Assembly: GCA_021788015.1 (NCBI GenBank)
Contig: JAJYLD010000006.1
Coordinates: 1,744 to 65,743, forward strand
DNA from: a bacterium
Lineage (GTDB): Bacteria > Patescibacteriota > Patescibacteriia > Patescibacteriales > JAKAJF01
DNA: 64,000 nt
Direction: 5' to 3'
The position numbers were made by a program, and so were the translations under genes. Positions 6,071 to 61,964 of the stretch are shown piece after piece. Within the stretch, counting starts at the first letter, position 1, and each line of letters opens with the position of its first letter. The notes below the pieces were generated by a model. That model did no database searches and was not told where the DNA came from. It saw only the letters and a program-made list of their open reading frames with translations.

Positions 6071-6228
6071 TTTAAAACACCGAGGGGTTCGGGAGCGGAA
6101 TTGAGTCCCGACAGATGTCGGGAAATTGGAGCCCCCGAAACTTTCCCGCCCGCATCGCTATGCGAAGCATTGCGAGCAGGTTTGGTTACTTTCTTGGTTC
6201 CAAGAAAGTAACTCTTAGCGAAGCGAGT
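6071..6228 (+). repeat. Family-1 modular hairpin repeat, copy A
   Basis: TTTAAAACACC..GGGGTTCGGGAGCGGAATTGAG, hairpin TCCCGAC..GTCGGGA (6106-6123), GGAGCCCCCGAAACTT, hairpin CCCGCCCGCA..TGCGAGCAGG, hairpin GGTTACTTTCTTGG/CCAAGAAAGTAAC, TAGCGAAGCG. Confidence 0.75.
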
Positions 6229-14525: not shown

Positions 14526-15569
14526 TTACTCAATTTCTCTAATGGCAAGGCCGATGGCGACCGCCATGCGCGGACCGATCTCGTCCAGGGTCGGTTTCAA
14601 ATCAACCGGATAAGATATTCTCGCCCAAGGATCGCCTATTATGACCTGCTTATCCAAAATTTTTGACAAATAGGCCGGAAGATTGATGAGCATGGCCGAC
14701 CCTCCGGTCAAAATCACCTTGTCCACTTGAAGATTGTCCTTGCTTTGAAACAAATTAAGAGTATATTTAATTTCATTTATGATCGGAGCGATGGTTTCCG
14801 TTATTGTTTTCGGGATCACGCTTTGGTCGTTTTCGGACAAACTTATGCCCAAATCGTATTTGAATTGCTCCGCCCTTTCTATGCCGATATTTAAATTGTT
14901 GCCAATGGCCTTGGTGATTGTCAAACCGCCGATATCCATGCTTCTGGAAATAACCGGGATACCCTTGTTGATAACTAGAATGTCGGTCGTGCTTGCGCCT
15001 ATTTCCACAAGCATAACCGACGATTTGTCGTTGCCCAAAAGAGCTCTTACCAAAGAAAATGTCTCTGTCTCCAGACTCAAAAGATTCATCTGCGCTTCTT
15101 TAAAAATTTCAATGTATTTTTTAACCAAAACCCGCGGAGCACCGGTTAAAAAAACTTTTAGATTTTTATTGTCGGAATCGCCGTTTTCTATTTTCTTCCA
15201 GTCCAAAATCATTTCCTCGAGAGGCAGCGGCACCACTTTTTTCGCTTCCCAATAGACCGCTCCCTGGATATCTTTTTGCGATACGTTAGCTAAATTTAAA
15301 ACAGAAGAAAAAACGGAAAAAGTGGGAAGAGAAGCGACGACGTCTTTTGAAGTCATCCCCGCTTTTTCCCAAATTTCGTTGATCACTCTAACGATTCTTT
15401 TTTTATCCGATTTCCAGTCGTCTTTGACATCAAGAGTTTTGTCTTCGCTAAAACCGTAAGAAAACAGTCGGGCCACGTTTCCCTCCTTTTTAAACTCAAC
15501 CATCTTGATTCCGGAAGATCCGATATCTACGCCCAAATAACTATCGCTCGAAGAAGATAAAAGCGCCAT
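14526..15569 (-). CDS. pilM: Type IV pilus assembly protein PilM (actin-like ATPase)
   Basis: 347 aa. GVDIGSSGIKMVE phosphate-1 motif and DIGGLT motif. First gene of the operon. Confidence 0.85.
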   Translation of the reverse strand: MALLSSSSDSYLGVDIGSSGIKMVEFKKEGNVARLFSYGFSEDKTLDVKDDWKSDKKRIVRVINEIWEKAGMTSKDVVASLPTFSVFSSVLNLANVSQKDIQGAVYWEAKKVVPLPLEEMILDWKKIENGDSDNKNLKVFLTGAPRVLVKKYIEIFKEAQMNLLSLETETFSLVRALLGNDKSSVMLVEIGASTTDILVINKGIPVISRSMDIGGLTITKAIGNNLNIGIERAEQFKYDLGISLSENDQSVIPKTITETIAPIINEIKYTLNLFQSKDNLQVDKVILTGGSAMLINLPAYLSKILDKQVIIGDPWARISYPVDLKPTLDEIGPRMAVAIGLAIREIE

Positions 15570-21046: not shown

Positions 21047-21553
21047 TTAAATAAAAATATTTTCCAAATTATTTTCATCCAGATCCCATTTCAAAGGATT
21101 ATTTATAATATATTCTCTTATCTTTATCAATTCATTTTCATTTCTGATTATTCGATCGTAAAAGGAACGTTGCCATTGAAAATTAAAATCGGAATGTAAA
21201 TGAATTAATTTAGATGAGGCAGTCTTAAACGCTCCAATTAATTCAGACAGAGATTTAACTTTTTCTTTTTGCAGGGACAGGTCGCGACCTGTCCCTACGT
21301 TTTCCGAATCAATGATTAAAATTCCATGTAAATGATTTGGCATTATTTTTAAAATATCCAAATAAATATATTTATATTTTTTCAACCATTCCCATTGCTT
21401 TTTTACGATTAAACCGGATTTATTTAAAATCATCTTTCCATTTTTAATTTCTCCAAAATATTTTTTTCTGTTTTTTGTGCAAATGGTTACAAAATAATAG
21501 CCGTCGTCAGAATAATCATGGTCTTTTGCGCGATTCGGTTTTCTGATATTCAT
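21047..21553 (-). CDS. IS200-like / REP-associated (RAYT-like) Y1 HUH transposase family protein
   Basis: HUH motif (MPNHLHGIL) and a C-terminal Tyr region (SFYDRIIRNENE). The likely start is MNIRKPNR at 21553; the ORF-track extension to 21625 runs through a hairpin. Confidence 0.7.
   Translation of the reverse strand: MNIRKPNRAKDHDYSDDGYYFVTICTKNRKKYFGEIKNGKMILNKSGLIVKKQWEWLKKYKYIYLDILKIMPNHLHGILIIDSENVGTGRDLSLQKEKVKSLSELIGAFKTASSKLIHLHSDFNFQWQRSFYDRIIRNENELIKIREYIINNPLKWDLDENNLENIFI
21273..21296. repeat. Perfect 24-bp palindrome inside the Y1 transposase gene
   Basis: AGGGACAGGTCG/CGACCTGTCCCT. Encodes GTGRDLSL just after the HUH motif. Confidence 0.8.
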
Positions 21554-21564
21554 ATTATAATTCC

Positions 21565-21592
21565 GTAGTGACAGGTCGCGACCTGTCACTAC
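21565..21592. repeat. Perfect 28-bp palindrome between the recG stop and the Y1 transposase start
   Basis: GTAGTGACAGGTCG/CGACCTGTCACTAC. Its 18-bp core GACAGGTCGCGACCTGTC is identical to the core of the palindrome at 21273-21296. Confidence 0.8.
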
Positions 21593-23787: not shown

Positions 23788-24072
23788 TTAAGCCTTGAGC
23801 ATTTCCTCGATTTCGCCGGCCCTTTTTGTTCCTTCTTCTCCCCCGAATTTCTCCGTGAGATAACCGAGGGAGGGGATCTCGACGGAGCTGGAGCCGCCGC
23901 CGTAGGAGTACATGAGCAGGCCGAGGTCGATCATCTCCCTCATGGTCTTTTTGACCTCGTCCGAGGAAGGCCCTTCCGCGCTCACGCCCTTGATGATGTC
24001 TTTTTCTTTCAACTTCTTCTTGCCCTTGGCCGCGTTCACGAATGCCAAAATCCTCTTTTTGAGTTCGTCCAT
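23788..24072 (-). CDS. Small G+C-rich hypothetical protein, possibly a winged-helix (DsrD-like) fold
   Basis: 94 aa. GGAGGG Shine-Dalgarno sequence upstream. Weak resemblance to DsrD-type winged helix (..EVKK..M.DLGLL.YSYGGGSS). Composition differs from neighbours. Confidence 0.35.
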   Translation of the reverse strand: MDELKKRILAFVNAAKGKKKLKEKDIIKGVSAEGPSSDEVKKTMREMIDLGLLMYSYGGGSSSVEIPSLGYLTEKFGGEEGTKRAGEIEEMLKA

Positions 24073-24160
24073 ATTCCCTCCTTCTGATTTGTTATCTTAA
24101 ACTTAAACCACAATTCTATTGTTGTCAAACTTGATAAAATAAAAATATTAATTTTCTGGC

Positions 24161-24212
24161 TTTCAAAAAATCATGGGGTTTGGGGAGGGCGGACGTAACT
24201 CCTGGTAAACAC
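24161..24212 (+). repeat. Family-1 repeat, copy B (internally deleted mini-copy)
   Basis: TTTCAAAAAATCATGGGGTTTGGGGAGGGCGG joined directly to the 3' motif GTAACTCCTGG. Confidence 0.5.
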
Positions 24213-24270
24213 TAAAACATAAAAGCAACGGCTAAAAACCCGCTGCTTTTTGGTACTTGCAATTAATCTA

Positions 24271-24456
24271 CTATTTATCTGTACCTACCGGATTCATCAA
24301 CGACTGAATCGAAACAATAATTACGAGAATACTCAAAAGACCGGTCAGATATTGCGGAAAAGTCGTGACTTCGCCGGCCTTGAAAAAATCGTGGAAGAAA
24401 AGAAAATCAACGAACAAAAATCCCAGAATAAGAATGATGTCTATTGTTTTTCTCAT
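24271..24456 (-). CDS. Small two-TM membrane protein
   Basis: 61 aa with two hydrophobic helices. Followed by a hairpin plus T-run (24222-24250). Confidence 0.4.
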   Translation of the reverse strand: MRKTIDIILILGFLFVDFLFFHDFFKAGEVTTFPQYLTGLLSILVIIVSIQSLMNPVGTDK

Positions 24457-24500
24457 ATATTTATTGGACAGAATCTCCGATGAACGATTCCGTCAATTAA

Positions 24501-25121
24501 TTAATCGTCCAATCCCTTTCCCTTGAGAATTTTCCGCATGTATTTTTCAACTCTCGCTTCACGAGTTTTGGATTGTTTGGGTTGGGAAAAATAAAAAATG
24601 TACGCTCTTTGCCGTCCCGGTGTCAACGCCTCGAAGGCTTTTTTCAAGGCGGGTACTTTATCCAATTTATTTTGGAATTCTTCGGGAATTTTGAAGTCAG
24701 ATGTTTTTTTATGGGGCACTTTCAAACCGGCTTTTTCCACTTCAATAGCTTCCTTGATATAGGCTTTCAAAACCGGTTCCATTTTTACTATTTCACTCAA
24801 GCTCGTGAATCGAATCTGGCGCCCCGCCTGCACATTCTCCGTTTGTTGAATGAGAACATGTTTGGGATCTTTCAATAAGACGCCCTTCATAAACAGAATT
24901 GCGCAGTATTCTTTAAATCCATGGATTAAAACCACGTTCCCGCTCTGCATCCCCGCCGATGAGGGAAATGTGTAACAGGGTTGGCCCCATTTCAATTCTT
25001 CGGTCAACCCGGAATCAAGAATGATTCTTCTCAATTCCTCCATTTCTTTCCGCCACTTTCCGACTCTATTTAGAAATGCGTCAACTTTGGGATTAGTTAT
25101 GATTTCATTTCTCTTTGTCAT
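24501..25121 (-). CDS. YdeI/OmpD-associated family protein (DUF1801 N-terminal domain)
   Basis: 206 aa. The C-terminal LTPGRQRAYIFYFSQPKQSKTREARVEK matches the YdeI-type motif as I recall it. Confidence 0.65.
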   Translation of the reverse strand: MTKRNEIITNPKVDAFLNRVGKWRKEMEELRRIILDSGLTEELKWGQPCYTFPSSAGMQSGNVVLIHGFKEYCAILFMKGVLLKDPKHVLIQQTENVQAGRQIRFTSLSEIVKMEPVLKAYIKEAIEVEKAGLKVPHKKTSDFKIPEEFQNKLDKVPALKKAFEALTPGRQRAYIFYFSQPKQSKTREARVEKYMRKILKGKGLDD

Positions 25122-25138
25122 GCGGTTGAATAATTCTT

Positions 25139-25297
25139 TTAACCTTTAAAAGCGAAACGCATCAACACGATAGTCAAGGCGTTAAGAATAACCAACGCCA
25201 ATACCATTTGTGATTTCGTCGCAAGCGGATGCATTAAAATGTAAACCGTGTAAATTATCGCGACAATAGCTGCGCCGAGAAAGTTTCCTCTTATCAT
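25139..25297 (-). CDS. Possible 52-aa two-TM membrane peptide (below ORF-track cutoff)
   Basis: Hand translation: MIRGNFLGAAIVAIIYTVYILMHPLATKSQMVLALVILNALTIVLMRFAFKG*. Confidence 0.3.
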   Translation of the reverse strand: MIRGNFLGAAIVAIIYTVYILMHPLATKSQMVLALVILNALTIVLMRFAFKG

Positions 25298-25532
25298 ATT
25301 TTTGGTTAAAGGTTGATAAAGATACGACCTTTATATAAGCCCATTTTATCAATTTTTTAGGAAAAAATCAAGAACGGTTTTGTCAAAATAAAAATAACTC
25401 GATAAAGTCGAGCTATTTTTATTTTGCGGAGAGGGTGGGACGATGTTGGAAATTTTTTATTGACAAACATAAAATTGTGTGGAAATATAACAAATATCTT
25501 GAACTTTTAATATAGGGTAGGAGGTTATTATC

Positions 25533-26136
25533 ATGGATAAAGAGAAATTCGATGCTACAATAGTGATGGGCGGGAAAAGGGGGCCTAATTGGTTTAAATC
25601 AACCTCTCCGTATGGCTATAATATTGCCGAATGCATCAGTGCCGCCGTCAAAGAAATTCGGCGAAGCAATGAGGAGATGGCGATTTTTTGGGCGCATCAA
25701 GTGGCAATTTCCGGCCAGGCGGCCGAGAAATTTATCTGGGAGATTCTGCGGGTGCATTGCATTGAGGACATCGGCCTGGCTAATCCGCAGGCAATCAATG
25801 TAGTTACTGATGTTATGCGGTTATATTTTGACCTTCCAAATATCGATGAGGAAATATGCTGTGCTTGCCCATGCTGTTATCTATATGGCCAGGTCCAAGA
25901 AAACCAGATATTCAAACGAGATGCTTTTCGTGATGCTTCAGGAATTGAGGAGCGGCAAGCTGAAGCCGAAAATTCCGGATTATGCCCTTGACATCCATTT
26001 GCCACAAGGCAGAAAAATAGGGAGGGGTTTGAAGCATTACCTTACCGAGGCGGCAAAGCTTGCTAAAGAAGACAAGTCTCTTTCGAAAAAATACAAGCAA
26101 AAGTTGCTCAAGATTGCAGTGAAAAAAAGTAAATAA
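25533..26136 (+). pseudogene. Stand-alone MgsA/RarA C-terminal-domain protein, frameshifted
   Basis: ORFs 25533..25991 and 25810..26136 together match the RarA C-terminal region (FWAHQ..EDIGLANPQA..|..AVLAHAVIYMARSKKT). Frame change near 25830-25850. No AAA+ module. Confidence 0.6.
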
Positions 26137-26140
26137 ATGC

Positions 26141-26170
26141 AAAACCACGATCTTCGGATCGTGGTTTTTT
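26141..26170 (+). terminator. Strong intrinsic terminator after the MgsA_C-like gene
   Basis: AAAACCACGATC-TTCG-GATCGTGGTTTT plus TT. Confidence 0.75.
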
Positions 26171-26288
26171 CTTGGCGGAGGGGGGGTCCAAAACAAAAAA
26201 ATCGCCCAGGTTAGTTTCAAACGGCCATATGACGCTATAGCCAAAATTGAAAATAAGGACGATTTTGAATCAGTGCGGTGTTTTTTGA

Positions 26289-26441
26289 ACGAAGTTCGAA
26301 CCGAAAAAGTGGCTCAAATTCAAGGATATTGATAAAAGTATAACGGAATTAAGAAAAATGTTCAAAGTTCATCCGGAATGGTTTGAAACGCCGAAGCCGA
26401 AGTCGGAGAAAGGTAAAAGCGAAGTCGAATATTCGATTTAA
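26289..26441 (+). pseudogene. 3'-terminal gene fragment (unknown gene X), copy 1
   Basis: Open for 50 codons after an in-frame TGA. Encodes ..KFEPKKWLKFKDIDKSITELRKMFKVHPEWFETPKPKSEKGKSEVEYSI*. Confidence 0.5.
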
Positions 26442-27301
26442 AAGAAACTTCTCATTTTTTCGATGGATGATTTCAAAATACCATAATCAGTCTTTCCGTT
26501 ATCTTTTTGGTGATGGATTTGGTTTCTAATGAATGTATGAATACTGACTTCGTTTCGATTGCCTTTCCACGGCGAATTTTTTGGTTCGCCTTTTACAGCA
26601 ACGAAAAAGTCATTATCAAACAACTTATAATCCTTGCTAACTCCGTTGGTAGATTTTAATTCCTCGTATAGTTCGTTGTGGTATTCTTCTGTTGCCAAAT
26701 TGAATGCTAAAAAGTTCGTTTCGTTCGCCGAGATGTACGGCAATACTCGTTTCTCTACCTCTAATACTTTTTGCCCATTACATTCCAAAACTCGCACTCT
26801 CACCTTGCTGTTTTCTGATAGCTGTTTTACTAATAGTGGAGAATGAGAAGCGAGCAAAATTTGTGCGTCTTTAGAAAACTCCAGCAGAAAACCGACAAAC
26901 TTTTCTTGCAACCTCGGATGTAAGTGTAGTTCTGGTTCGTCTATAAGAACAATCAACTGCTTTCCGCTTTGTCTGGCGAGATAGAAAGAATATAGAAGCG
27001 CAAAAATCATTTCATATCCCGAACCTAAATTACTCAAAGCAATTTGTTGATGATTGTCTTTCTTGGTGGCAAAGAAAGCTCCCCTAAACGGCTCGTAATT
27101 ATCCAAAAAATCCAATCTGATTTTTGAGCCGCTTATTTCCTCAAATTTTTTTACTGCCTCGGCAAGAAAATTATTTTCAACCCTGTCTTTTTTGATCTTC
27201 TCGTCTAAATCGTCGTTTAGATTCGCAATCCCGGTTTCTAAGCTTTTGTTGAGATATTGATAGCTAAAATCTTCCATTAAACGATGGTTCAAAGTTGCCA
27301 A
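26438..27301 (-). pseudogene. ABC/AAA_21-type (OLD-like) ATPase, N-terminally truncated
   Basis: Signature-like LSNLGSGYE, Walker B LIVLIDEPELHLHP and H-loop LLASHSP are present. No Walker A. The frame is closed by a stop at 27344-27346. Confidence 0.6.
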
Positions 27302-27319
27302 TCTGGCGGGGACGATGTC

Positions 27320-27472
27320 CCGAAGTTTGAACCGAAAAAGTGGCTAAAATTCAAGGATATTGATAAAAGTATAATGGAATTAAGGAAAATGTTCAAAGTC
27401 CACCCAGAATGGTTTGAGACTCCAAAACCAAAGTCGGTTAAGGGAAAGAATGAAGTGGATTATTCTATTTAG
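27320..27472 (+). pseudogene. 3'-terminal gene fragment (gene X), copy 2
   Basis: Homologous to 26289-26441. Begins directly after the tRNA-end-like motif at 27302-27318. Part of ORF 27284..27472. Confidence 0.45.
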
Positions 27473-28107
27473 CCCGGAAGAGTTGCGAGATATTGATCGG
27501 TTATATACAAAACCCCTGATTCTGGAAGTTTTGGTTGTTCCACCTTGTCAATAAAACCGAACTTCTGCGCCTCTGTCGCAGTATAAGTCGTAGTGTTTTG
27601 AAATGCTTTTCTTATGGCTGATAAATTTAGTGTCTTTTGGCCCTTACCGGCAGTTTCTTTCTGTATTATTTTTTGCGTTTTATCATCTGTAGCTAATAGA
27701 GTAGTTTTTTGTGTTTCCAGATCAACTAAATTAAATTGCTCTGGAAGTGTAGTCCTAGGGAGAGTTGTTTGATGAATCAGAAAACTACAATCTGGCACAC
27801 CAATTCTATTTTGGAAACCAAGAAAGAAAGGAACGCCAGCTGAAAAGACACTCCCCATATTATAGACAGTTGTCTTTTGAGGGATTGATTTAACAAAATT
27901 GTAGAGATTTACAGCATAGAATGGATTGCCTCCAAGTGTAGAGAGACATACAACGTATTCTGAAATATTTTGGCCAGATTGTGCCTGATTATTAATGAAA
28001 GCAGTAAAAACATCCTCCATCTTTTTTGTTATAGTCGCGCTACACCATATGTACTGAATTTTCTTCTGTTGTATTTGTTCGTCCATATAATTATTTATGT
28101 TGTACAT
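27469..28107 (-). CDS. ClpP/S14-fold serine protease-like protein
   Basis: 212 aa. LSTLGGNPFYAVNLYNFV..MGSVFSAGVPFFLG..FLIHQ aligns by eye to the ClpP INSPGG..AASMG..IHQP blocks (Ser and His retained). Confidence 0.55.
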   Translation of the reverse strand: MYNINNYMDEQIQQKKIQYIWCSATITKKMEDVFTAFINNQAQSGQNISEYVVCLSTLGGNPFYAVNLYNFVKSIPQKTTVYNMGSVFSAGVPFFLGFQNRIGVPDCSFLIHQTTLPRTTLPEQFNLVDLETQKTTLLATDDKTQKIIQKETAGKGQKTLNLSAIRKAFQNTTTYTATEAQKFGFIDKVEQPKLPESGVLYITDQYLATLPG

Positions 28108-28387
28108 TAAATTTCGGTTGTTCTTTTTTTATTATCCTTTTTTCAATATTGTGAGCTTTTACCTTAGTTTTTACCTGTGCGATCTGAAATTTTGTACCAC
28201 CGGGAATAACCTCTTTCTTAATATCCTTATGTTCTATAAGTCTGTCCTGTGAACGGCCTCTGCCGGCGATTCCAGTGTAGAGATTATTTCCAGAACCATC
28301 CTTAATTTTATAAATAATCGCTTTATTTTTTGGGATTTTAGCAATATTTCCTTTTGTAAACTTTTTGGTTCGACTAAATTTTGTCAT
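28091..28387 (-). CDS. Small GIY-YIG domain protein
   Basis: 98 aa. IIYKI..GNNLYTGIAG..R..RL.EH..N.EKR pattern. Overlaps the downstream ClpP-like gene by 17 nt. Confidence 0.55.
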   Translation of the reverse strand: MTKFSRTKKFTKGNIAKIPKNKAIIYKIKDGSGNNLYTGIAGRGRSQDRLIEHKDIKKEVIPGGTKFQIAQVKTKVKAHNIEKRIIKKEQPKFNVQHK

Positions 28388-28433
28388 ACTATTTTTAAAT
28401 TATTTATTAATTATAGCTGTGGATAAGTAAGCC

Positions 28434-28476
28434 TTGCATACCTTCTATTTTCCTTCTATAATGGAAGTATACCTCC
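28434..28476 (+). promoter_or_regulatory. lexA promoter (TTGCAT-17-TATAAT) with an adjacent imperfect palindrome
   Basis: -35 at 28434-28439 and -10 at 28457-28462. GGAAGTATACCTCC at 28463-28476. Direct repeat CCTTCTAT x2 at 28441-28459. Confidence 0.45.
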
Positions 28477-28501
28477 ACGATAAATAATATGTCAATATCA
28501 T

Positions 28502-29092
28502 ATGCTTACCAAAAAACAAAAATTAGTTTTAGATTTTGTGAAGCAATACGAGAAGAGAATGGGATATTCCCCCTCTCTTGAGGAAATACAACAACATTTC
28601 AAATTGGCTTCTGTATCAACGGCACATTTTCATATTAAGCAACTGCAAAAGAAAGGATTGCTGACAAAAGAGGAGAAGCAGGGACGAACAATATCTGCCG
28701 TAAAAGAAGCTAAAGCCTTAGAAGTGCCACTTGTTGGAAATATTGCCGCAGGGCAGCCTATTGAGGCCATAGAAACGCCTGGTGAAACCGTCTCTGTGCC
28801 AAGAAGCGATATTAAATTACCATTCCAACATTACGCGCTTAGGGTGGTTGGTGACAGCATGATCGAAGACGGGATTTTTAATAACGATATCGTTGTTGTT
28901 AGATCTCAAAACGTAGCCGATAATGGACAGACTACTGTTGCCATCATCGACGATAATCAAGCAACACTTAAAAAGATTTTCAAAGAGAAAGGGAAAATCA
29001 GGCTTCAGCCAGCAAATAAGAAGTTGAAGCCAATTTTTAGGAAGAAAGTTGAAATTAGGGGTGTTGTTGAGAAAATAATTAGAACGCTTTAA
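28502..29092 (+). CDS. lexA: LexA-type repressor (wHTH plus S24 peptidase)
   Basis: 196 aa. N-terminal wHTH, cleavage-site context NIAAGQP, catalytic GDSM and the TLKK lysine. Confidence 0.85.
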   Translation: MLTKKQKLVLDFVKQYEKRMGYSPSLEEIQQHFKLASVSTAHFHIKQLQKKGLLTKEEKQGRTISAVKEAKALEVPLVGNIAAGQPIEAIETPGETVSVPRSDIKLPFQHYALRVVGDSMIEDGIFNNDIVVVRSQNVADNGQTTVAIIDDNQATLKKIFKEKGKIRLQPANKKLKPIFRKKVEIRGVVEKIIRTL

Positions 29093-29094
29093 TT

Positions 29095-31617
29095 ATGAAC
29101 ATTCAACACAAAAAATTAACCTATATAAGTTTATTCAGTAGTGCCGGCGTTGGTTGCTATGGATTTTCACAAGAGGGATTTGATTGCATTGCAACTGTCG
29201 AAATTATCGATAGGCGTTTAGATGTGCAACGACACAATAACAAATGTCTTTACCAAAGCGGATATATTGCAGACGATATCACCAAGAAATCAACGAAAGA
29301 AAAAATCTTTTCCGAGATTGATTTATGGAAATCTAAGCAGGGTCTCAAAGAAATTGACGTGGTACTGGCAACTCCTCCATGCCAGGGCATGTCTGTTGCT
29401 AATCATAAAAAGCTAAATGAACTTAAAAGAAACTCTCTTGTTGTGGAGTCGATCAAGATTGTCGAAGAAATTCGTCCGAAAATTTTTGTATTTGAAAATG
29501 TTCGGGCGTTTCTCTCGACCCCATGCACGGATATCGATAAGAAAGAAAAAACCATACGAGAGGCCATCGAATTAAACCTTGGCGGTAAGTATAACATTCA
29601 CTACCAAGTAATTAACTTTAAGGATTACGGAAACCCATCAAGCCGTACTCGGACCCTCGTTATTGGTATTAGAAAAGATATTCCTGAAATAACACCTCTT
29701 GATCTCATGCCGTCTCTTAGAGATGGTGGCACCTTGCGTGACGCAATCGGAAAACTACCGTCACTGAAAACAATGGGAGAAATTGATTCGAAAGACATTT
29801 ATCACAATTTCCGTCCATATGGTGAACATATGTTGCCGTGGATTGAAAACATAAAAGAGGGCCAGTCAGCTTTTGATAATGTAGACCCTACGCGTCGTCC
29901 TCATCAAATCAAGGACGGAAAGATTGTCTATAACGAAAATAAGAATGGCGACAAGTACTCTCGGTGCTATTGGGATAAGGTCGCCCCGTGTGTACATACA
30001 AGAAATGATATTCTTGCCAGCCAAGCAACGGTACACCCAGAAGATAACCGTGTCTTCAGTATTAGAGAGTTGATGAAAATAATGTCCGTTCCAGACTCAT
30101 TCAATTGGGTAGCCACACCCTTGAACCAGTTGAACAAACTTTCGGTGGAAGAAAAAAAGAAACTTCTCAAGAAAGAAGAGATTAACATTCGTCAGTCGCT
30201 CGGAGAAGCTGTTCCAACAGTGATTTTTGGAAGTATCGCAAAGAAAGCAAAAGAGAAACTGCTTAATGTTGGGAGAAACGACAACCAGATAAAGAAGTTT
30301 ATTCTAGAGAAAGAATTAGATGTTCAGGATAATCTAAAAGTTTTTTTAAAAGACAACATAGGAGATTTCACATATCCTGAGTTGGCAAAAATTGTAGAAC
30401 TTGCAAATGCCGAGCGGCTAAAACATGCCGCATATTACACGAGACAAGATATCTGCTTTACGATAATCAAGGATTTACCAGACACATCAAAATACGAGAA
30501 TTTGTCCATTCTTGAACCGTCAGTCGGCGCAGGTAATTTTCTTCCGTTACTTATTGAGAAATACAAGACAGTAAAGAATGTCGAGATTGATGTCGTAGAT
30601 ATTGATAAAAACGCTATCGAGATACTCAGAGTTCTTTTGAAGAAACTGAGTGTTCCTAAAAATATAAAAATTAACCTTATAAATGAGGACTTCCTCTTGT
30701 ATGGAGAGACGAATCTTTTCAATCAAACGAAGCGGTACGATCTCGTGGTCGGTAACCCCCCGTTTGGAGATATAACTGAGAATAAAGAACTTCTGAGTAT
30801 CTACAAGAAAGACAAGCACAATACAGACACGAATAATCTCTTTTCATTCTTCCTTGAGAAGACAATTCAACTAGGAGATGTTGTTGGTTTGATTATTCCT
30901 AAAAGTTTTCTTTCAGCACCAGAATTCAACAAAACTCGAGAACTTGTGTCTTCTTTTGCACTTGAGAAGATTACCGACTATGGAGAGAAAGGTTTCAAAG
31001 GTGTAAAGATTGAGACGATTAGCCTTATTGTAAATACAAAACAAAAAGGTTCACGTACACTCGTTGAATCATATATTAAGAATGAGATTGGGTTCAAGGA
31101 TCAGTCTTATATTTGCTCAAAGGAATTTCCTTACTGGTTGGTATACAGAAATGAATTCTTTGACTCCGTGGCAAAGAAGCTGAGGTTCAATATCTTCACT
31201 TCGTACCGTGACCGACAGATTACAAAAAAGATTACCAAGTCAAAAGGAAAGATTCGAGTTCTTAAGTCACGCAATATTGGTAAAAATGAGATTGTAGATA
31301 TCCCGAACTACGATTCTTATGTTGATTCCATTGACGGTCTTTCAATTGGAAAGTTCTTTAATGCAGAAAACACTGTATTAGTGCCAAACCTTACCTATAC
31401 CCCAAGAGCAACTTTTCTGCCGGAAAACACTATCGTTGATGGTTCTGTGGCTCTCCTGATGCCAAAAGTTGAAGACGTTGAAATAACATCAAGTGATCTA
31501 GCATATTTTGCCACGGAAGAATTCACGGAATTTTATCGAGTTGCCCGTAATCACGGAACACGCTCACTTAACATAGATAATAATTCCGTCTTCTTTTTCG
31601 GGGTGAAAACAAGTTAA
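29095..31617 (+). CDS. Fused DNA methyltransferase: N-terminal C5-cytosine MTase plus C-terminal N6-adenine (Eco57I/TaqI-type) MTase
   Basis: m5C motifs: FSSAGVG (I), PPCQGMS (IV), FENV (VI), SRTRT (VIII), GEAVP (X). m6A motifs: EPSVGAGNFL (I), VGNPPFG (IV). Starts 2 nt after the lexA stop. Confidence 0.85.
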   Translation: MNIQHKKLTYISLFSSAGVGCYGFSQEGFDCIATVEIIDRRLDVQRHNNKCLYQSGYIADDITKKSTKEKIFSEIDLWKSKQGLKEIDVVLATPPCQGMSVANHKKLNELKRNSLVVESIKIVEEIRPKIFVFENVRAFLSTPCTDIDKKEKTIREAIELNLGGKYNIHYQVINFKDYGNPSSRTRTLVIGIRKDIPEITPLDLMPSLRDGGTLRDAIGKLPSLKTMGEIDSKDIYHNFRPYGEHMLPWIENIKEGQSAFDNVDPTRRPHQIKDGKIVYNENKNGDKYSRCYWDKVAPCVHTRNDILASQATVHPEDNRVFSIRELMKIMSVPDSFNWVATPLNQLNKLSVEEKKKLLKKEEINIRQSLGEAVPTVIFGSIAKKAKEKLLNVGRNDNQIKKFILEKELDVQDNLKVFLKDNIGDFTYPELAKIVELANAERLKHAAYYTRQDICFTIIKDLPDTSKYENLSILEPSVGAGNFLPLLIEKYKTVKNVEIDVVDIDKNAIEILRVLLKKLSVPKNIKINLINEDFLLYGETNLFNQTKRYDLVVGNPPFGDITENKELLSIYKKDKHNTDTNNLFSFFLEKTIQLGDVVGLIIPKSFLSAPEFNKTRELVSSFALEKITDYGEKGFKGVKIETISLIVNTKQKGSRTLVESYIKNEIGFKDQSYICSKEFPYWLVYRNEFFDSVAKKLRFNIFTSYRDRQITKKITKSKGKIRVLKSRNIGKNEIVDIPNYDSYVDSIDGLSIGKFFNAENTVLVPNLTYTPRATFLPENTIVDGSVALLMPKVEDVEITSSDLAYFATEEFTEFYRVARNHGTRSLNIDNNSVFFFGVKTS

Positions 31618-32810
31618 ATATAGAGTTCATTAACCTTTGCCCTAAGTTCGTCAAAGGTTGTATTCGTGGACAGATCAAGAGAAAGTCCGGTATTGATTAC
31701 ATGAATCAGAGATTCTTTCGAATATATGTCTTTGCCTTGCTTAAGTGAAGACTCAATTGTATCTATTTTGGATAGCAAGCATTCCCTTTGATACGGTCGA
31801 TCTATGATCTGAGTGTGGTTGCTCGGATGAGCTTTTGTATTGTGTTGTTGAGGAGTCAAAAGAATAAGGTTTTCAACATACACAGATATTTGTGGAAACT
31901 CATGTTCGGGGAAAATATGATGGACCTGTGTAGCTTCGCCGTTTGCATAGCTGTCCCTGACTTCACTTGCTGTGTGATTTCGCCGAATGATATTCTTCGC
32001 TTTTTGTACCTTATATGCAGAAAGTTCTGGATTCTCTTCAATAATTTCTTCGGATTCCTGGCGTGTTATCGCTTTGTCTTTTCCAATATCTCGGAAGTTA
32101 CTTCTGTTGTACATCAAATCTGAATAAGCAAAACGGTTCTCGGTCATTCTTCCATCTTCTGATCCATTGATCATGTGGTAGACAGCATAAGGATTGAGCA
32201 CTTTCGGGAAAATACGTCGTATCTCAGTACCGCCATTTATATTTGTAAACCCACGCATAAACGCTTCAAATTTTGTTTTGAGTACTTCAAAATCCCTTTG
32301 AGATACCGTACCAGCCTTTGCCTTGTCACGATAAGATTCCAATTCTCCGAAGCCACTGTCGGTCAAAACTTTCTCGACATATACAACTAGAAAAATCCAT
32401 GCATTTCTCTCATTTTGTGCAATATATTCTAGGATTTCTGGCTGTAGGACTTTATATGTATTTCGTACTCCAACTTTTTCTTCTTTTAGGATCTTTGCAA
32501 AAGCTAGTGTTTTTAGTGGTTGAGCAATGAACTTGTCATACTCGGCACTCGCGCTTTCGTTTGTTGGTGATGGTTTGCCGAAGATGGCGACTGTGTTCTT
32601 TTGAAAATACTGGAAGTCCCATAGTTCCTTTGTTGTGAATACAACGCTTGATTCCTTACCACCAAGGAAGTTCACAATACAATCAGCAATGAAAGTGAGA
32701 ACATCAGGAGTCACTTTCTGATCCATGTAACGAGAAAAGCCCTCGGGCTTCTTGCGTAAGTCGAGATCCAAACTTCCTATGTGTTTTCTTATAATGTCCT
32801 CAAAAATCAT
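31614..32810 (-). CDS. HNH-motif restriction endonuclease (putative cognate REase)
   Basis: 398 aa. C-terminal QVHHIFPEHEF...NLILLTPQQHNTKAH. Convergent with the MTase, with stops overlapping by 4 nt. Confidence 0.65.
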   Translation of the reverse strand: MIFEDIIRKHIGSLDLDLRKKPEGFSRYMDQKVTPDVLTFIADCIVNFLGGKESSVVFTTKELWDFQYFQKNTVAIFGKPSPTNESASAEYDKFIAQPLKTLAFAKILKEEKVGVRNTYKVLQPEILEYIAQNERNAWIFLVVYVEKVLTDSGFGELESYRDKAKAGTVSQRDFEVLKTKFEAFMRGFTNINGGTEIRRIFPKVLNPYAVYHMINGSEDGRMTENRFAYSDLMYNRSNFRDIGKDKAITRQESEEIIEENPELSAYKVQKAKNIIRRNHTASEVRDSYANGEATQVHHIFPEHEFPQISVYVENLILLTPQQHNTKAHPSNHTQIIDRPYQRECLLSKIDTIESSLKQGKDIYSKESLIHVINTGLSLDLSTNTTFDELRAKVNELYI

Positions 32811-34166: not shown

Positions 34167-34306
34167 TTCAAAACACCAATGGGGTTTGGGGGCGAAATTG
34201 AACCAAGGCGAGAAATTTAAAAGCAAATCAATGTGATAGCCGACCTGCCTGCCGGCAGGTTGGGGCCCCAAAACTTTTTGGTTACAAGTAACTCCTAGTG
34301 AAGCGA
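34167..34306 (+). repeat. Family-1 repeat, copy C
   Basis: TTCAAAACACC..GGGGTTTGGGGGCGAAATTGAA, CCAAGG, ATCAATGTGATAGC, inserted hairpin ACCTGCC-TGCC-GGCAGGT, GGCCCCAAAAC, shortened GGTTAC..GTAACTCCTAGTGAAGCG. Confidence 0.7.
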
Positions 34307-38489: not shown

Positions 38490-38703
38490 AAGATTTACGG
38501 ATCGGATTGGCGATTTCCGTTTATTTCCCGATGAATTTTGAGATAAAATTTTATATTTCGCATTCAAAACGCCGAAGGTCTTGAGGACCGAACCATCCGC
38601 TTTTTATTTGACAAAAAGAAAAAACTTGGTAAATTAGAATTAATTTCGATCTTTTGAGAATAAAGAAAAATTGAAAATAAAATTCAAGAAAGGATAAAAA
38701 AAC

Positions 38704-40711: not shown

Positions 40712-40853
40712 TTCAAAACACAAGGGGGTTCGGGGGCGGAATTGAGCGCCAAGGCGAGCACATTAAATTATAATCAATGTGATAGCGAATTGGAGTCCCC
40801 GAAACTTCTTTGGTTACTTTCTTGGTTACAAGAAAGTAACTCCTAGCGAAGCG
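40712..40853 (+). repeat. Family-1 repeat, copy D (near-consensus)
   Basis: TTCAAAACACAAGGGGGTTCGGGGGCGGAATTGAG, CGCC-AA-GGCG, ATCAATGTGATAGCGAATTGGAGTCCCCGAAACTT, GGTTACTTTCTTGG-TTA-CAAGAAAGTAAC, TCCTAGCGAAGCG. Confidence 0.8.
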
Positions 40854-40930
40854 TTTATTACTCTTTGTTTTGTGCATTTAACCGCAAAAAGCGGTTTTTT
40901 ATAAAAACTGAAACGTGTTATACTAGAAAT

Positions 40931-41918: not shown

Positions 41919-42210
41919 TTTTAAACACCGTGGGGGCTTGGGGACGGGATTGAGCGCTTTTAATTTAATAAACATTTGTAACCTTTGAAAAATTGCGTTA
42001 AGAATTTTTTCGAAATGCCGTTACAAAATTTCACTGTTTGAGCGACGTTAGGAGCGAGTTTGAAATTTTGTCAGGCATACCGGAAAAATTTAGCAATTTT
42101 TCAGCGGGAGCGACTTTTTATCCCTCTTTTTCTTAGAAAAAGAGGGTGCCGCCCGCGTAGGGCGCCGCGGAGCATTAAATTTTTTCTGGAGCCGGTCCGG
42201 GGCCCGGGAT
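41919..42210 (+). repeat. Family-1 repeat, copy E: 5' core followed by a nested palindromic element and GC-rich hairpins
   Basis: TTTAAACACCGTGGGGGCTTGGGGACGGGATTGAGCG; 119-bp palindromic element at 41986-42104; hairpin CCCTCTTTTTC-TTA-GAAAAAGAGGG at 42122-42146; then GC-rich stems. Confidence 0.6.
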
Positions 42211-45841: not shown

Positions 45842-45959
45842 AATGGTAACTCCTCTCCTTACTAACCTGCCTGCCGGCAGACAGGGGAGATGCTGGGTAA
45901 GGTTTCGTCTAAAAAAGGAAACCGCCCCTTAATCCCCTCCTTAGTAAGGAGGGGAAATT
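45842..45959. repeat. 118-bp hairpin-module insertion between pheS and pheT
   Basis: Shares modules with families 1 and 2: GGTAACTCCTC, ACCTGCCTGCCGGCAG, GGTTTC..GAAACC, CCCCTCCTTA-G-TAAGGAGGGG (45934-45954). Confidence 0.6.
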
Positions 45960-47546: not shown

Positions 47547-47725
47547 TTTAAAGCACTGAGGGGTTTGGGGGCGGAATTGAGTCCCGCCGACGGCGGGAAG
47601 AGAACCTTAAGACAATCAATGTGATAGCGAATTGGAGCCCCCGAAACTTCCCGCCCGCATCGCTATGCGAAGCATTGTGGGCGGGTTTGCCTGCTTGGCG
47701 CCTGTCCGCCTCTGGCGGAGTTACA
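47547..47725 (+). repeat. Family-1 repeat, copy F
   Basis: TTTTAAAGCACTGAGGGGTTTGGGGGCGGAATTGAG; TCCCGCC-GA-CGGCGGGA (47582-47598); ATCAATGTGATAGCGAATTGGAGCCCCCGAAACTT; CCCGCCCGCA..TGTGGGCGGG; variant 3' end with CCGCC-TCT-GGCGG. Confidence 0.75.
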
Positions 47726-56545: not shown

Positions 56546-56787
56546 ACACTTATTTTAACACAGGAAGAAAAATTTAAAAACCCGGCGGTGCACCGGGTTT
56601 TAGGGAGCTATATGTAGATATCATAAAATCTCTTTTGCTTAACCTCTCTATAAATCTCAGAAATTTGCCCAATAAAATTGAGAATTTCTTTCTGAAATGT
56701 CATTCTTGAGGTGAGGAAATTAATTGGTATCGTTTTATATTAACTCCTAATACCAACATACTTCTAATTTTAAAATGTCAAGATAGT

Positions 56788-56983
56788 TTCAAGTACAATG
56801 GGTTTGGGGGGCGGAATTGAGCGTCGGGGCGAAAAAAATATAAAATAATCAACGCGATAGCGAATTGGAGCCCCGAAACTTACCCGCGCCCGCATAGCCA
56901 TCGAAGTATTGCGGACGGGTTTGGTTACTTTCTTGGTTATTTACCCGCCTTTGAAGGGCAAGAAAGTAACTCCCAGCGAAACG
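56788..56983 (+). repeat. Family-1 repeat, copy G (with an expanded terminal hairpin loop)
   Basis: TTTCAAGTACAATGGGTTTGGGGGGCGGAATTGAG, CGTC-GG-GGCG, ATCAACGCGATAGCGAATTGGAGCCCCGAAACTT, CCCGCGCCCGCA..TGCGGACGGG, GGTTACTTTCTTG[24-nt insert]CAAGAAAGTAAC. Confidence 0.75.
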
Positions 56984-56988
56984 TCAAG

Positions 56989-57200
56989 AAAAAAAGGAGC
57001 ATTAATGCTCCCGGCATGGCAAACCATGAGCGTGGCGACTCATTTCCCTGATCGGCGTCGGATAGGGTTTTCCCGACTAATGAGGTTTAACCACAGGGCC
57101 CGAATCCGCAGTAAGTTAGATCCGCTCGCGCCGGCGCGAAAGCCCTATATGATACTCAGAGGGTTGTTTTTTATTTGCGAATAGAGCGGCGCCATGCTTG
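56989..57200 (-). ncRNA. Candidate ~210-nt structured small RNA of unknown class
   Basis: Promoter TTGACA-16-TAAAAT upstream. Terminator GGAGCA-UUAA-UGCUCC plus U7 (56989-57011). G+C-rich body. The 5' GCAUGGC pairs with GCCAUGC just before the terminator. Confidence 0.45.
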
Positions 57201-58944: not shown

Positions 58945-59490
58945 TTATTTGAATAAGCCCGATGAACCTCCGAACAGTTGATCTAAAACGAACAAACTGC
59001 CCAAATTATATTGAGGACCCAAGATTCCTCCGCCACCGAAGATTCCGTTATTATTATACAATCCGTTCAATAGCATGAGATTGCCCAGATTTGTATTGGT
59101 GAGACCGTTGCCGAAAACCGTTCCGCCGCCGAATAGCCCGTTCAATAGCATAAGATTGCCCAGATTTGTAGAGTTTCCGAAAACCGTTCCGCCTCCGTAC
59201 AAACTATTTAAGAGAATAAGATTGCCCAAGGAGCTTCTGCTTCCGAGCAATCCGTTCCCGCCATACAAACTGTTCAAAAGAAGTAAATTACCCAAGGTGG
59301 AGGTTGATGTCCCCGTTGTTCCGGTGGGACAAGGCATCTGGCTCTGCGATTCCGGAAGGCAATTGACATTGTCGTTTGGTGACGCGGAGCCGCTATTATC
59401 GCTTTGGGCGAATATCGCCGTTGGATAAATTATGAGAGAAAGCAACATGAGAAAAACAATCGAAGTGAAATATTTTCTCATTTTTATCAC
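58945..59490 (-). CDS. Secreted Leu/Gly-repeat protein, paralog 1 (5 repeats)
   Basis: Signal peptide (..AIFA/QS). Five units of ~22-28 aa of type (S/N)LGNL(L/I/M)LLN(S/G)L(Y/F)GG.., ending LGSLFVLDQLFGGSSGLFK. Confidence 0.6.
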   Translation of the reverse strand: MIKMRKYFTSIVFLMLLSLIIYPTAIFAQSDNSGSASPNDNVNCLPESQSQMPCPTGTTGTSTSTLGNLLLLNSLYGGNGLLGSRSSLGNLILLNSLYGGGTVFGNSTNLGNLMLLNGLFGGGTVFGNGLTNTNLGNLMLLNGLYNNNGIFGGGGILGPQYNLGSLFVLDQLFGGSSGLFK

Positions 59491-59551
59491 CTCCTTTCTT
59501 CATTTTTAAGAAAAACGCGATAAAGGAAAAATCCCTTCATGTAAATTATAG

Positions 59552-59578
59552 TACGTAGCAATGAACCGGGATGTTACA
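59552..59578 (-). promoter_or_regulatory. ECF-type promoter TGTAAC-N17-CGTA upstream of 58945..59490
   Basis: Minus strand: TGTAAC (59578-59573), 17-nt spacer, CGTA (59555-59552), then CTATAAT. Confidence 0.5.
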
Positions 59579-59796
59579 CGCTATTTTCCTTCTGTTCCAA
59601 TTTTAGGCATAAATTCATTCTTCTCCGCAAACATCTTTTTATCCGATTTTAAGAAAATAATTTTGAGAAATATCCGAAAAGTTTTTAATTTTGATAATTT
59701 TTTCTTGACCATTTTTATTTTAATCCGCAGGGGGCAGGACCATGTCCCGCCCCCCTTGCTTTCACTTATTTTTTCGAGAAAAAGAAAATTCACCGT

Positions 59797-60339
59797 TTAC
59801 TTGAAAAGGCCTCCGCTTGTTCCGAAAAGCTGATCTAAAACGAACAAACCGCCCAAATTGTTTGTGCCCGACCCTAAAATTCCTCCATTATTCAAGATTC
59901 CGTTGCCGCTGAACAATCTGTCCAAAACGAACAGATTTCCCAAATTGGTGCTGCCCGCGCCCGTTTGACTGTTAAAAAGAGTTCCTCCTCCTCCGAATAA
60001 TTGATTTAGCATAAACAAATCGCCCAAATTGGAAGATGACGTATTTCCGACGCCCAATGCATTATTCCCGTTAAAAAGCTGATCCAAAATGACCAAGTCT
60101 CCCAAGCTCGTTTTAGTGGCGGTGGGAGTGGTCGTTACCGGCACTTGAACCGTCTGAGTATAAAGCAAAGTGAAACCGGGAGGAATGGACTGGCCGATAT
60201 TGATCACCCTCTTTTCGCCGGTGGTGGGATTGATAATTGTCGCTTTGCCGGTAGAGGCGAAAACAAAAGCCGGCGCGGCCATCAAAACCGTAAGCGCGAG
60301 AGCGATAATGTATTTTATCTGTGTTTTCATATTTTTCAC
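59797..60339 (-). CDS. Secreted Leu/Gly-repeat protein, paralog 2 (4 repeats)
   Basis: Signal peptide (..FVFA/ST). Four units of type NLG(D/N/G)LF(V/M)L(D/N)(Q/R)LF(G/S)G.., ending LGGLFVLDQLFGTSGGLFK. Confidence 0.6.
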   Translation of the reverse strand: MKNMKTQIKYIIALALTVLMAAPAFVFASTGKATIINPTTGEKRVINIGQSIPPGFTLLYTQTVQVPVTTTPTATKTSLGDLVILDQLFNGNNALGVGNTSSSNLGDLFMLNQLFGGGGTLFNSQTGAGSTNLGNLFVLDRLFSGNGILNNGGILGSGTNNLGGLFVLDQLFGTSGGLFK

Positions 60340-61101: not shown

Positions 61102-61737
61102 TTATTTTTTTCTTCCGTAAATGATATAAATCAAACCTTTAAAGTAAAAAAGAACGGTTATAAAATACCAAATCAAGGTGAAAACGGCCGCGATTAAAAA
61201 CATTTGGGCGTAATAAGTGCCGTTGATTGTGTAAACAACTATATCTCTCGACGAATCGCAATTTATATTTTTCGGAAGCAGGCAATATTTTTTTGTTTTT
61301 TCTTGATTTAAACTCGCAAGCAGGGCGGATTTTAAAACATTTTTCGAAAGATTTTTTTGCCCCTGGTTTTCGGCAACGATCAAATTCACGACAACGTCCG
61401 CGTTTCTTTCAAAATCGGGATTACAAATTCCGTTTTGCAAATCAGCGGAAGAAATCCTGTCAATAATTTTGGTATCCGGGTTATAACATCCCAGGATTCC
61501 TCTTTGTCGAAGAAAGCTCGGAATCGTATTGTCGATGTTAAGATCGCTCGAAGCCGTAAAATCTCCCAGATCGCCGATAACGGTTGTATTGGCGCTCGTC
61601 TCCATAATTCTTCCCGGGAAATAACGCAACCAGAAAAAGAAAATTAAAATCGTAGAAATGGCGAACGCCACTTTAAACAATCGATGCCACCATTTTTCTT
61701 CAAGCTCCGGTCTCTGAAAATCTTTAAAAAAATTCAT
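61102..61737 (-). CDS. Two-TM membrane protein with a Cys-containing extracytoplasmic domain, first gene of the ECF sigma operon
   Basis: 211 aa with TM helices near both termini. 39 nt upstream of the sigma gene. No anti-sigma motif recognised. Confidence 0.5.
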   Translation of the reverse strand: MNFFKDFQRPELEEKWWHRLFKVAFAISTILIFFFWLRYFPGRIMETSANTTVIGDLGDFTASSDLNIDNTIPSFLRQRGILGCYNPDTKIIDRISSADLQNGICNPDFERNADVVVNLIVAENQGQKNLSKNVLKSALLASLNQEKTKKYCLLPKNINCDSSRDIVVYTINGTYYAQMFLIAAVFTLIWYFITVLFYFKGLIYIIYGRKK

Positions 61738-61836: not shown

Positions 61837-61964
61837 ATTAAAAAAACCGACTCATAATTAATAAAAACAATTATTAATCAATAGTCGGTTTCGCCATTGG
61901 CTCCTCGCGAACTCGGGCGACCATTCGATATTTGCTTACGCGAGTTCAGCCCCTATTAATTTGT
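61837..61964 (-). ncRNA. Candidate ~130-nt leader or sRNA (structured G+C-rich segment plus long terminator hairpin)
   Basis: Starts about 7 nt after TAGAAT. GAACUCG/CGAGUUC stem. Hairpin AAACCGACU..AGUCGGUUU (61844-61891) plus U-run. 100 nt upstream of the 61737 start. Confidence 0.4.

Follow-up and report, generated by a model that had tools for sequence, protein, structure and literature searches.

A modular family of hairpin-rich intergenic repeats with uniform orientation in a Patescibacteria genome

The BOX elements of S. pneumoniae and S. suis (boxA-boxB(n)-boxC; PMC3049150) are intergenic repeats in which fixed terminal modules enclose ordered, optional internal modules, and they include minimal forms made of the terminal modules only (the A1C1 BOX, PMC3049150). 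They have predicted stem-loops when transcribed, no coding capacity, a species-specific sequence and an uncertain mobilising enzyme. The REP/BIME sequences of Proteobacteria, which go together with RAYT (TnpA_REP) proteins, are mosaics of GC-rich palindromes found in gene-3′-proximal spacers of compact genomes; they carry a GTAG tetranucleotide and occur as inverted doublets. MITEs (Correia, RUP, ERIC) are 50–300 bp in size, non-coding, multi-copy, intergenic and strongly self-pairing, with terminal inverted repeats and target-site duplications. In IS608, the hairpins at the two ends are similar and are bound by a single TnpA dimer. PATEs, derived from IS200/IS605 elements, are without terminal inverted repeats and target-site duplications, and display hairpins near both ends and a strand-uniform orientation as in IS608 and ISDra2 (PMC5027513).

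A repeat family that resembles each of these systems in part is described here. It was found in a stretch of 64,000 nucleotides (termed the window) from a 69-kb contig of a metagenome-assembled Patescibacteria genome (GCA_027328865.1; ENA ERZ27233565). The repeat units are ~50–290 bp, hairpin-rich, and present at a density of about one per 9–10 kb; there are five full copies (A, C, D, F and G) and two partial copies (B and E). All seven are intergenic and all seven are on the + strand, a one-strand bias with a two-sided p = 2×(1/2)^7 = 0.016. The 5′ motif GGGGTTYGGGGGCGGAATTGAG (22 nt) gives six matches at three or fewer mismatches (positions 6084, 34181, 40725, 41933, 47560 and 56800), 6/6 on the + strand, versus 0.00 expected in shuffled sequences. 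The core sequence AATTGGAGCCCCCGAAACTT occurs three times and the tail sequence GTAACTCCTAGCGAAGCG four times in the window, both on the + strand only. Module-wise nhmmer searches and a covariance model built on the 5′ domain of the family return the same seven loci on the + strand and none on the − strand. The remaining 4.3 kb of the source contig outside the window shows no further copy. Motif scans, nhmmer and the covariance model thus agree with the first-pass annotation, which had noted a dispersed, intergenic family in one orientation whatever the direction of the flanking genes.

The modules, in their order from 5′ to 3′, are the following.

M1: TTYAAAACAC-N3-5-GGGGTTYGGGGGCGGAATTGAG, present in all seven copies
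M2: hairpin, variable in sequence
M3: A-rich linker
M4: AATCAATGTGATAGCGAATTGGAGCCCCCGAAACTT, present in copies A, C, D, F and G
M5: hairpin CCCGCCCGCA...TGYGGGCGGG (arms also given as CCCGCCCGCA..TGCGGGCGGG), present in copies A, F and G
M6: hairpin GGTTACTTTCTTGG/CCAAGAAAGTAAC, present together with the tail in copies A, C (short), D and G
M7: tail, TCCTAGCGAAGCG

The copies and the related fragments are listed below with their composition, gene context and covariance-model score.

Copy A, 6071..6227, + strand: M1, a 7-bp hairpin TCCCGAC/GTCGGGA, a short M4 (without the A-rich linker), M5, M6 and M7; 69.1 bits; between RecO (−) and RuvX (−), with the RuvX stop codon 14 nt away
Copy B, 24162..24212, + strand: 51-nt remnant in which the M1 start TTCAAAAAATCATGGGGTTTGGGGAG is fused to an M7-like end GTAACTCCTGGTAAACAC; 12.3 bits, E 1 (M1 nhmmer E 0.013)
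Copy C, 34167..34306, + strand: M1, linker, M4 in which the AATTGGA segment is replaced by the hairpin CGACCTGCCTGCCGGCAGGTTG, short M6, M7; 82.4 bits; preceded by a bidirectional terminator after tRNA-Arg and followed, after 2 nt, by the stop codon of a − strand hydrolase gene
Copy D, 40712..40853, + strand: most modules, without M5 (M1 40712–40746; short hairpin 40747–40756; A-rich linker; M4 40772–40807; M6 and M7 40812–40853); 112.6 bits; between the stop codon of a DUF5946 gene (+) and that gene's terminator at 40880–40896
Copy E, 41920..41954, + strand: M1 only; 17.3 bits (M1 nhmmer E 5.8e-7)
Fragments, 45842..45959, + strand: GTAACTCC and the hairpin ACCTGCCTGCCGGCAG, both common with copy C, filling the PheT-PheS spacer
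Copy F, 47547..47725, + strand: M1, a 7-bp hairpin TCCCGCC/GGCGGGA, linker, M4, M5 (to 47688) and a divergent 3′ part; 103.1 bits; between the gene hyp127 (−) and the stop codon of a UvrD/PD-(D/E)XK helicase-nuclease gene (−)
Copy G, 56787..56983, + strand: the most complete copy, M1-M2-M3-M4-M5-M6 (with an extra inserted hairpin)-M7; 102.3 bits; in a 900-nt spacer between the divergent genes RmuC (−) and a 464-aa gene (+)

The module searches bear out the module order proposed in the first-pass annotation as well as its description of a BIME-like mosaic, in that modules are gained and lost as blocks. Copy A is without M3 and copy D without M5, the 3′ part of copy F is divergent, copy C has another hairpin in place of AATTGGA, copy G has an extra hairpin within M6, and copy B consists of the two terminal modules only. 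The module fragments reported at 45842–45959 are also confirmed, by GTAACTCC and an exact 16-mer hairpin in common with copy C. A “solo 5′ motif” at 38563 is at chance level (nhmmer E 7.5) and was dropped. Copy E had been given as 41919–42210; its M1 part stands (17 bits, E 0.05), but the remainder, downstream of M1 to ~42210, is unrelated hairpin-rich sequence.

This downstream sequence holds a nested imperfect palindrome with arms at 41968–41996 and 42093–42121 (29 nt, 96 nt apart; the arms extend to ~45 nt by eye), which may represent the insertion of another, unrelated hairpin element into copy E. The PheT-PheS spacer is full of GC-rich hairpins, one of which overlaps the PheT ribosome-binding region. 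Directly 3′ of copy G is a GC-rich sequence of ~180 nt (57000–57180) with a T-run at its end; it overlaps a 91-aa open reading frame (56909–57184, +) and has no Rfam match at E<=5.

Five copies are located 2–21 nt from a stop codon. In A, C and F the stop codon is on the right side and belongs to a − strand gene, and in D and E it is on the left side and belongs to a + strand gene. The copies are therefore sense to the upstream genes of D and E and antisense to the genes of A, C and F. A single orientation that is sense at some 3′ regions and antisense at others speaks for a cause of the polarity at the DNA level and against a role as cis-acting RNA. A promoter-like site just upstream on the + strand was found for one of the four copies scanned (C, D, E and F), 37 nt upstream of F. 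No copy has a terminator of its own; the only adjoining terminator-like site, 3′ of copy D, is best read as that of the DUF5946 gene.

A long-range stem of 15 consensus pairs (termed P1) is formed between the G-rich arm of M1 and the C-rich arm of M4; 94.7% of its cells are standard pairs, in agreement with the long-range pairing of the 5′ G-block that had been proposed. A compensatory change is found in one of the 15 pairs (C:G / U·G / U:A). Shuffled controls equal the observed number of compensatory pairs in 339/500 and the covariation score in 133/500, and the RNAalifold covariation term is −0.2 kcal/mol. The first-pass annotation had quoted variable hairpins that keep their pairing while the sequence changes. 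These hairpins do exist, but between copies A and F the difference is one compensatory pair, and the shorter hairpin of D and G, judged by eye, reads as a trimmed form of the A/F hairpin.

Folding of the + strand gives z-scores of −4.8 for copy D, −2.8 for G and −1.1 for C, and the − strand of copy D gives −4.2 as RNA and −3.6 as DNA. With covariation at shuffle level and both strands folding with similar z-scores, the suggestion that selection on an RNA or ssDNA structure explains the hairpin pattern is not upheld; the available copies give no statistical support for covariation, one of the outcomes which the first-pass annotation had itself named as counting against its reading. Six of the seven copies are somewhat more stable on the + strand as RNA because the elements are G-rich on that strand (GC skew of +0.10 to +0.28, versus −0.06 for the window). 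The outer pairs of P1 are G·U and are possible on the + strand only. In the M5 hairpin of A and G, as read from the sequences, C·A mismatches on the + strand correspond to G·U on the − strand. We conclude that the folds follow from the palindromic nature of the DNA and do not demonstrate selection on one particular strand. The consistent G·U pairs in the stem, the G-richness of the + strand and the better + strand folds of six copies keep a strand-specific function as RNA or ssDNA conceivable.

The copies were also analyzed for signatures of mobility. A comparison of the first 40 nt with the reverse complement of the last 40 nt gives scores at shuffle level in 4/5 copies, with a marginal value for copy C (0.038), and thus no terminal inverted repeats were detected. 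Direct repeats in the flanks, e.g. TTTAAG at A and TCAAGA at G, are no better within than between copies (within-copy shared flank words are 4–6 nt, between-copy words up to 7 nt), i.e. there is no sign of target-site duplication. Without terminal inverted repeats and target-site duplications, no known DDE mechanism fits. Part of the similarity in the left flank of copy F is ancestral sequence that is also present in a relative; on the − strand this flank contains TTGAAA, a hexamer resembling a −35 element. No full-length parent element with matching ends is present in the 69-kb contig, and the window has no transposase or integrase besides one Y1 gene.

The Y1 gene (21047–21553, − strand) matches the NCBIfam model REP_Tyr_transpos with an E-value of 9e-17, but at 61 bits versus a cut-off of 80, and Pfam Y1_Tnp at 26.5 bits; an HUH motif (HLH) and a Y motif (RSFYDRII) are visible in the translation. 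A PDB sequence search with this RAYT-like protein gave no match. The gene is associated with a palindrome of its own, GTAG-(G/T)GACAGGTCGCGACCTGTC(C/A)-CTAC, which occurs in two copies (21271–21298 and 21565–21592) and nowhere else in the window. The copy at 21565–21592 is perfect and directly upstream of the start codon of the RAYT-like gene. The copy at 21271–21298 is inside the open reading frame and encodes VGTGRDLSL; it falls between the HUH and Tyr motifs, an odd position for a REP-like palindrome. The GTAG-hairpin-CTAC palindromes have no likeness to any module of the family. A link between the repeats and the HUH Y1 transposase had been offered as speculative; the gene is RAYT-like, but its own palindromes share nothing with the family modules, and the link is therefore without support here.

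Almost throughout the window the + strand has negative GC skew, and the − strand carries most of the genes. By the usual rule, all copies would thus be on the lagging-strand sequence of one replichore; the window covers one replichore only. The uniform orientation is the one feature of the family that is out of the ordinary, and it recalls IS608 and ISDra2, whose transposition is single-stranded and coupled to replication and which show a replication-linked orientation (PMC5027513, PMC3971601, PMC6006769). By this analogy the orientation may reflect a strand-specific (replication-coupled, single-strand) step of insertion or retention. With the nearest relatives at just ~70% identity in PheS, we infer, rather than observe, that the family is or was mobile.

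Searches for relatives of the family were made in several collections. At gathering thresholds Rfam gives no family match to the repeat, the only matches in the whole window being two tRNAs and a c-di-GMP-II riboswitch elsewhere; at permissive E-values (<=5–10) over copies D, E and G the matches are noise, <=26 bits versus gathering scores of 43–100. This accords with the earlier remark that the element is not recognisable as a known RNA family. A degenerate M1 pattern has three matches in 185,579 GTDB species genomes (one genome per species) and 48 in JGI metagenomes. Both counts are about those expected by chance from the information content of the pattern, and thus point to no relatives. 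None of these matches extends past the 22-mer, except for one that looks slightly longer (L033), on a contig that is CT-rich, of low complexity and ORF-poor, which was taken as chance. With three motifs, IMG/VR gave two single matches to the M1 motif pattern and none to each of the other two motifs; one of the two is on the same 237,553-nt contig as a metagenome match (L053) that matches the 22-mer only. A blastn search with copy G against plasmids and phages gave no match, and translations of the element in several frames, searched for spurious open reading frames elsewhere, yielded nothing.

No entry of the protein collection is more than 73% identical to PheS of the source genome, and the named matches are Patescibacteria/Parcubacteria. 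Three relatives (PheS ~70% identical) keep the gene order RmuC...peptidase M16-UvrD/nuclease-hyp127-PheS-PheT, and neither nhmmer nor the covariance model finds a copy at their syntenic loci. The PheS-PheT spacer is 118 nt here versus 7–10 nt in the three relatives, and the UvrD-hyp127 spacer is 274 nt versus about 137–149 nt. The shorter spacers without copies indicate that the elements are additions in this lineage.

One relative, on the JGI contig Ga0265292_1000253 (L007), displays short GC-rich repeats of its own at 351–426, 8357–8446 and 14678–14975 (TGTCATCCCCGGCGAGCGC... and TCTGGATCCCTGCCTGCGCAGGGATGACGGGAG), and its two largest families (D2 and D4) are part dispersed and part tandem. 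One array is within the called UvrD open reading frame (8357–8446) and others are between genes near 14.7–15.0 kb. The UvrD homologue on this contig has an intein (1528 aa, Hint/Intein_splicing domains). The presence of different GC-rich intergenic repeats in this contig suggests that such families turn over fast in the clade.

On balance the family is probably a lineage-specific, non-autonomous composite DNA repeat of the BOX/BIME kind, private to one metagenome-assembled genome. In such an element the conserved 5′ M1 and 3′ M7 would bracket a set of optional palindromic modules, and copies would have been inserted into, or retained only in, short spacers by gene 3′ ends in one Patescibacteria lineage. 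The hairpins would be a property of palindromic DNA. Read-through from a neighbouring gene may place them in mRNA as stem-loops, sense or antisense, and the family would not be an RNA gene. The copying enzyme would not be among those encoded in the window with matching ends.

The architecture of terminal modules, optional internal modules and a terminal-only form is that of BOX elements, with copy B (M1 and M7) comparable to the A1C1 form. Intergenic position, predicted stem-loops, lack of coding capacity, species-specific sequence and the uncertain enzyme are also alike. The family differs from BOX in that it probably has no sequence similarity to it, in that there is no tandem boxB-like array, and in that the copies seen are all on one strand. 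In addition, M1 pairs with the internal M4 and not with the 3′ terminal module, and thus the ends are without the inverted-repeat-like pair of boxA/boxC. The host phylum differs from that of the BOX hosts and for this reason homology to BOX is not expected.

Like REP/BIME, the family is a mosaic of GC-rich palindromes in gene-3′-proximal spacers of a compact genome, with a RAYT-like gene in the same window. Unlike REP/BIME, its modules are without the GTAG tetranucleotide, there are no inverted REP doublets, and the palindromes at the RAYT-like gene are of another sequence and occur at that gene only. With PATEs it has in common the lack of terminal inverted repeats and target-site duplications, hairpins near both ends and the uniform strand. 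It differs from them in that its two end hairpins are unlike each other (the one closest to the 3′ end, GGTTACTTTCTTGG/CCAAGAAAGTAAC, is unrelated to the 5′ structures, P1 and the TCCCGNC hairpin), in that no parent IS is visible and in that the target motif is undefined. The likeness to MITEs is in size, copy number, non-coding intergenic nature and self-pairing, and the difference is in the missing terminal inverted repeats and target-site duplications. For the integron attC site, the arms GTTYGGG and CCCGAAAC do not fit the R″ RYYYAAC / R′ GTTRRRY cores, the order is opposite and the neighbours are housekeeping genes. Because a defining feature of each was looked for and not found, the family is not regarded as a member of the REP/RAYT, MITE, PATE, attC or Rfam groups. 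Readings of the TTCAAAACAC motif as a sigma-54 or sigma-70 promoter were rejected from the sequence, as were LexA-box, hammerhead, twister and tRNA T-arm readings.

Other explanations have to be weighed against a composite DNA repeat. An HUH/Y1 enzyme could mobilise the family as single-stranded DNA; the candidates are the RAYT-like protein and an IS200/IS605 TnpA encoded elsewhere. The family would then be a PATE- or REP-type element with subterminal hairpins of which just one strand is recognised at the replication fork, and a single orientation would result. The lack of terminal inverted repeats and target-site duplications, the hairpin near each end (M6 is 13 nt from the 3′ end and an arm of P1 ~13 nt from the 5′ end), the 7/7 copies on one strand in a stretch of uniform negative GC skew, the precedent of IS608 and ISDra2 cited above and the Y1 gene in the window are in keeping with this. 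It is nevertheless considered unlikely, as the hairpins at the two ends are unrelated, the palindromes of the RAYT-like gene remain confined to that gene, the GTAG/CTAC signature of REPs is in no module, and the 69-kb contig has no full-length IS with these ends. The left-boundary motif TTYAAAAC, moreover, is common on the + strand anyway (26 versus 8 on the − strand). The uniform orientation, independent of transcription, would also fit a host signal at the DNA level that is polar to replication, e.g. a protein-binding or single-strand initiation site, with its orientation kept by selection. The elements are G-rich on the + strand, against the local skew, and several copies adjoin the repair/recombination genes RecO/RuvX, UvrD-nuclease and RmuC. 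Since relatives with the same gene order are without the elements, module content varies too much for a single fixed binding site, the sequence is not conserved outside this genome and the repair-gene neighbourhood may merely mirror the content of the window, such a signal is held to be very improbable.

Structured non-coding RNA genes, or strand-specific cis RNA elements, selected for the fold of the + transcript, would account for the well-paired P1 with its compensatory pair, for the outer G·U pairs confined to the + strand, for the greater + strand stability of 6/7 copies, for the z-score of copy D and for the promoter-like site upstream of F. The evidence on the other side makes this reading a doubtful one: covariation is at the level of the shuffled controls, the z-score of copy C is weak and that of copy D is retained on the − strand, and the M5 hairpin of A and G pairs better on the − strand. 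The promoter-like site is confined to one of four copies, the terminator by D is best assigned to the DUF5946 gene and whole modules are lost without replacement. No homologue was found in the other genomes, the metagenomes or Rfam as searched, and the syntenic sites of the relatives have no copy. There is also a small chance that the family represents a new strand-polarised element, either a non-autonomous mobile one with dissimilar hairpin ends, copied as single-stranded DNA at the replication fork by an enzyme that is yet to be connected with it, or a lineage-specific, structured multi-copy RNA whose orientation would flip at the origin/terminus. The composite DNA repeat of the BOX/BIME kind is the explanation we prefer.

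Several other features of the window may be noted. A c-di-GMP-II-GAG riboswitch aptamer (61874–61963, − strand; Rfam RF03169, 44.8 bits versus a gathering score of 40) is upstream of a 211-aa gene (61102–61737, −) in this Patescibacteria genome. The region 24000–32000 shows a change in the sign of the GC skew and has an AbiEii-like AAA_21 fragment, a Clp-protease-like gene, LexA and an 840-aa fusion of a C5 and an N6 DNA methyltransferase (29095–31617). It looks like an accessory island, and the analysis recorded no copy of the repeat family inside it. The two copies of a 151-nt direct repeat (26290–26440 and 27321–27471) are 85% identical, many of the differences falling on every third base, and look like two paralogous small + strand open reading frames (one at 27284–27472, 62 aa) interleaved with − strand genes. 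Adjacent − strand open reading frames of 181 and 180 aa at 58945–60339 have internal direct repeats of 33–56 nt (D8, D16 and D20) and encode repeat proteins.

Some short-read contigs end at the copies. In the Logan contigs of SRR13170411, one contig (L003) starts inside copy F, another (L063) starts inside copy G and a third (L061) ends ~60 nt short of copy A. The contig ends of L003 and L063 are at window positions 47596 (copy F), 45915 (the hairpin-filled PheT-PheS spacer) and 56937 (the M6 hairpin of copy G). Such ends are consistent with repeated or palindromic k-mers, but prove nothing beyond that. Elements of this kind break short-read (de Bruijn) assemblies, and they are liable to be taken for RNA genes.

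The genomes of Patescibacteria (CPR) are small, and the usual view is that they are repeat-poor. The family described here shows that such a genome can host proliferating non-coding elements, which invade even operon spacers such as PheS-PheT. If the orientation held genome-wide and switched with the direction of replication, the family would offer a way into the study of a single-strand mobilisation system of an uncultured lineage.
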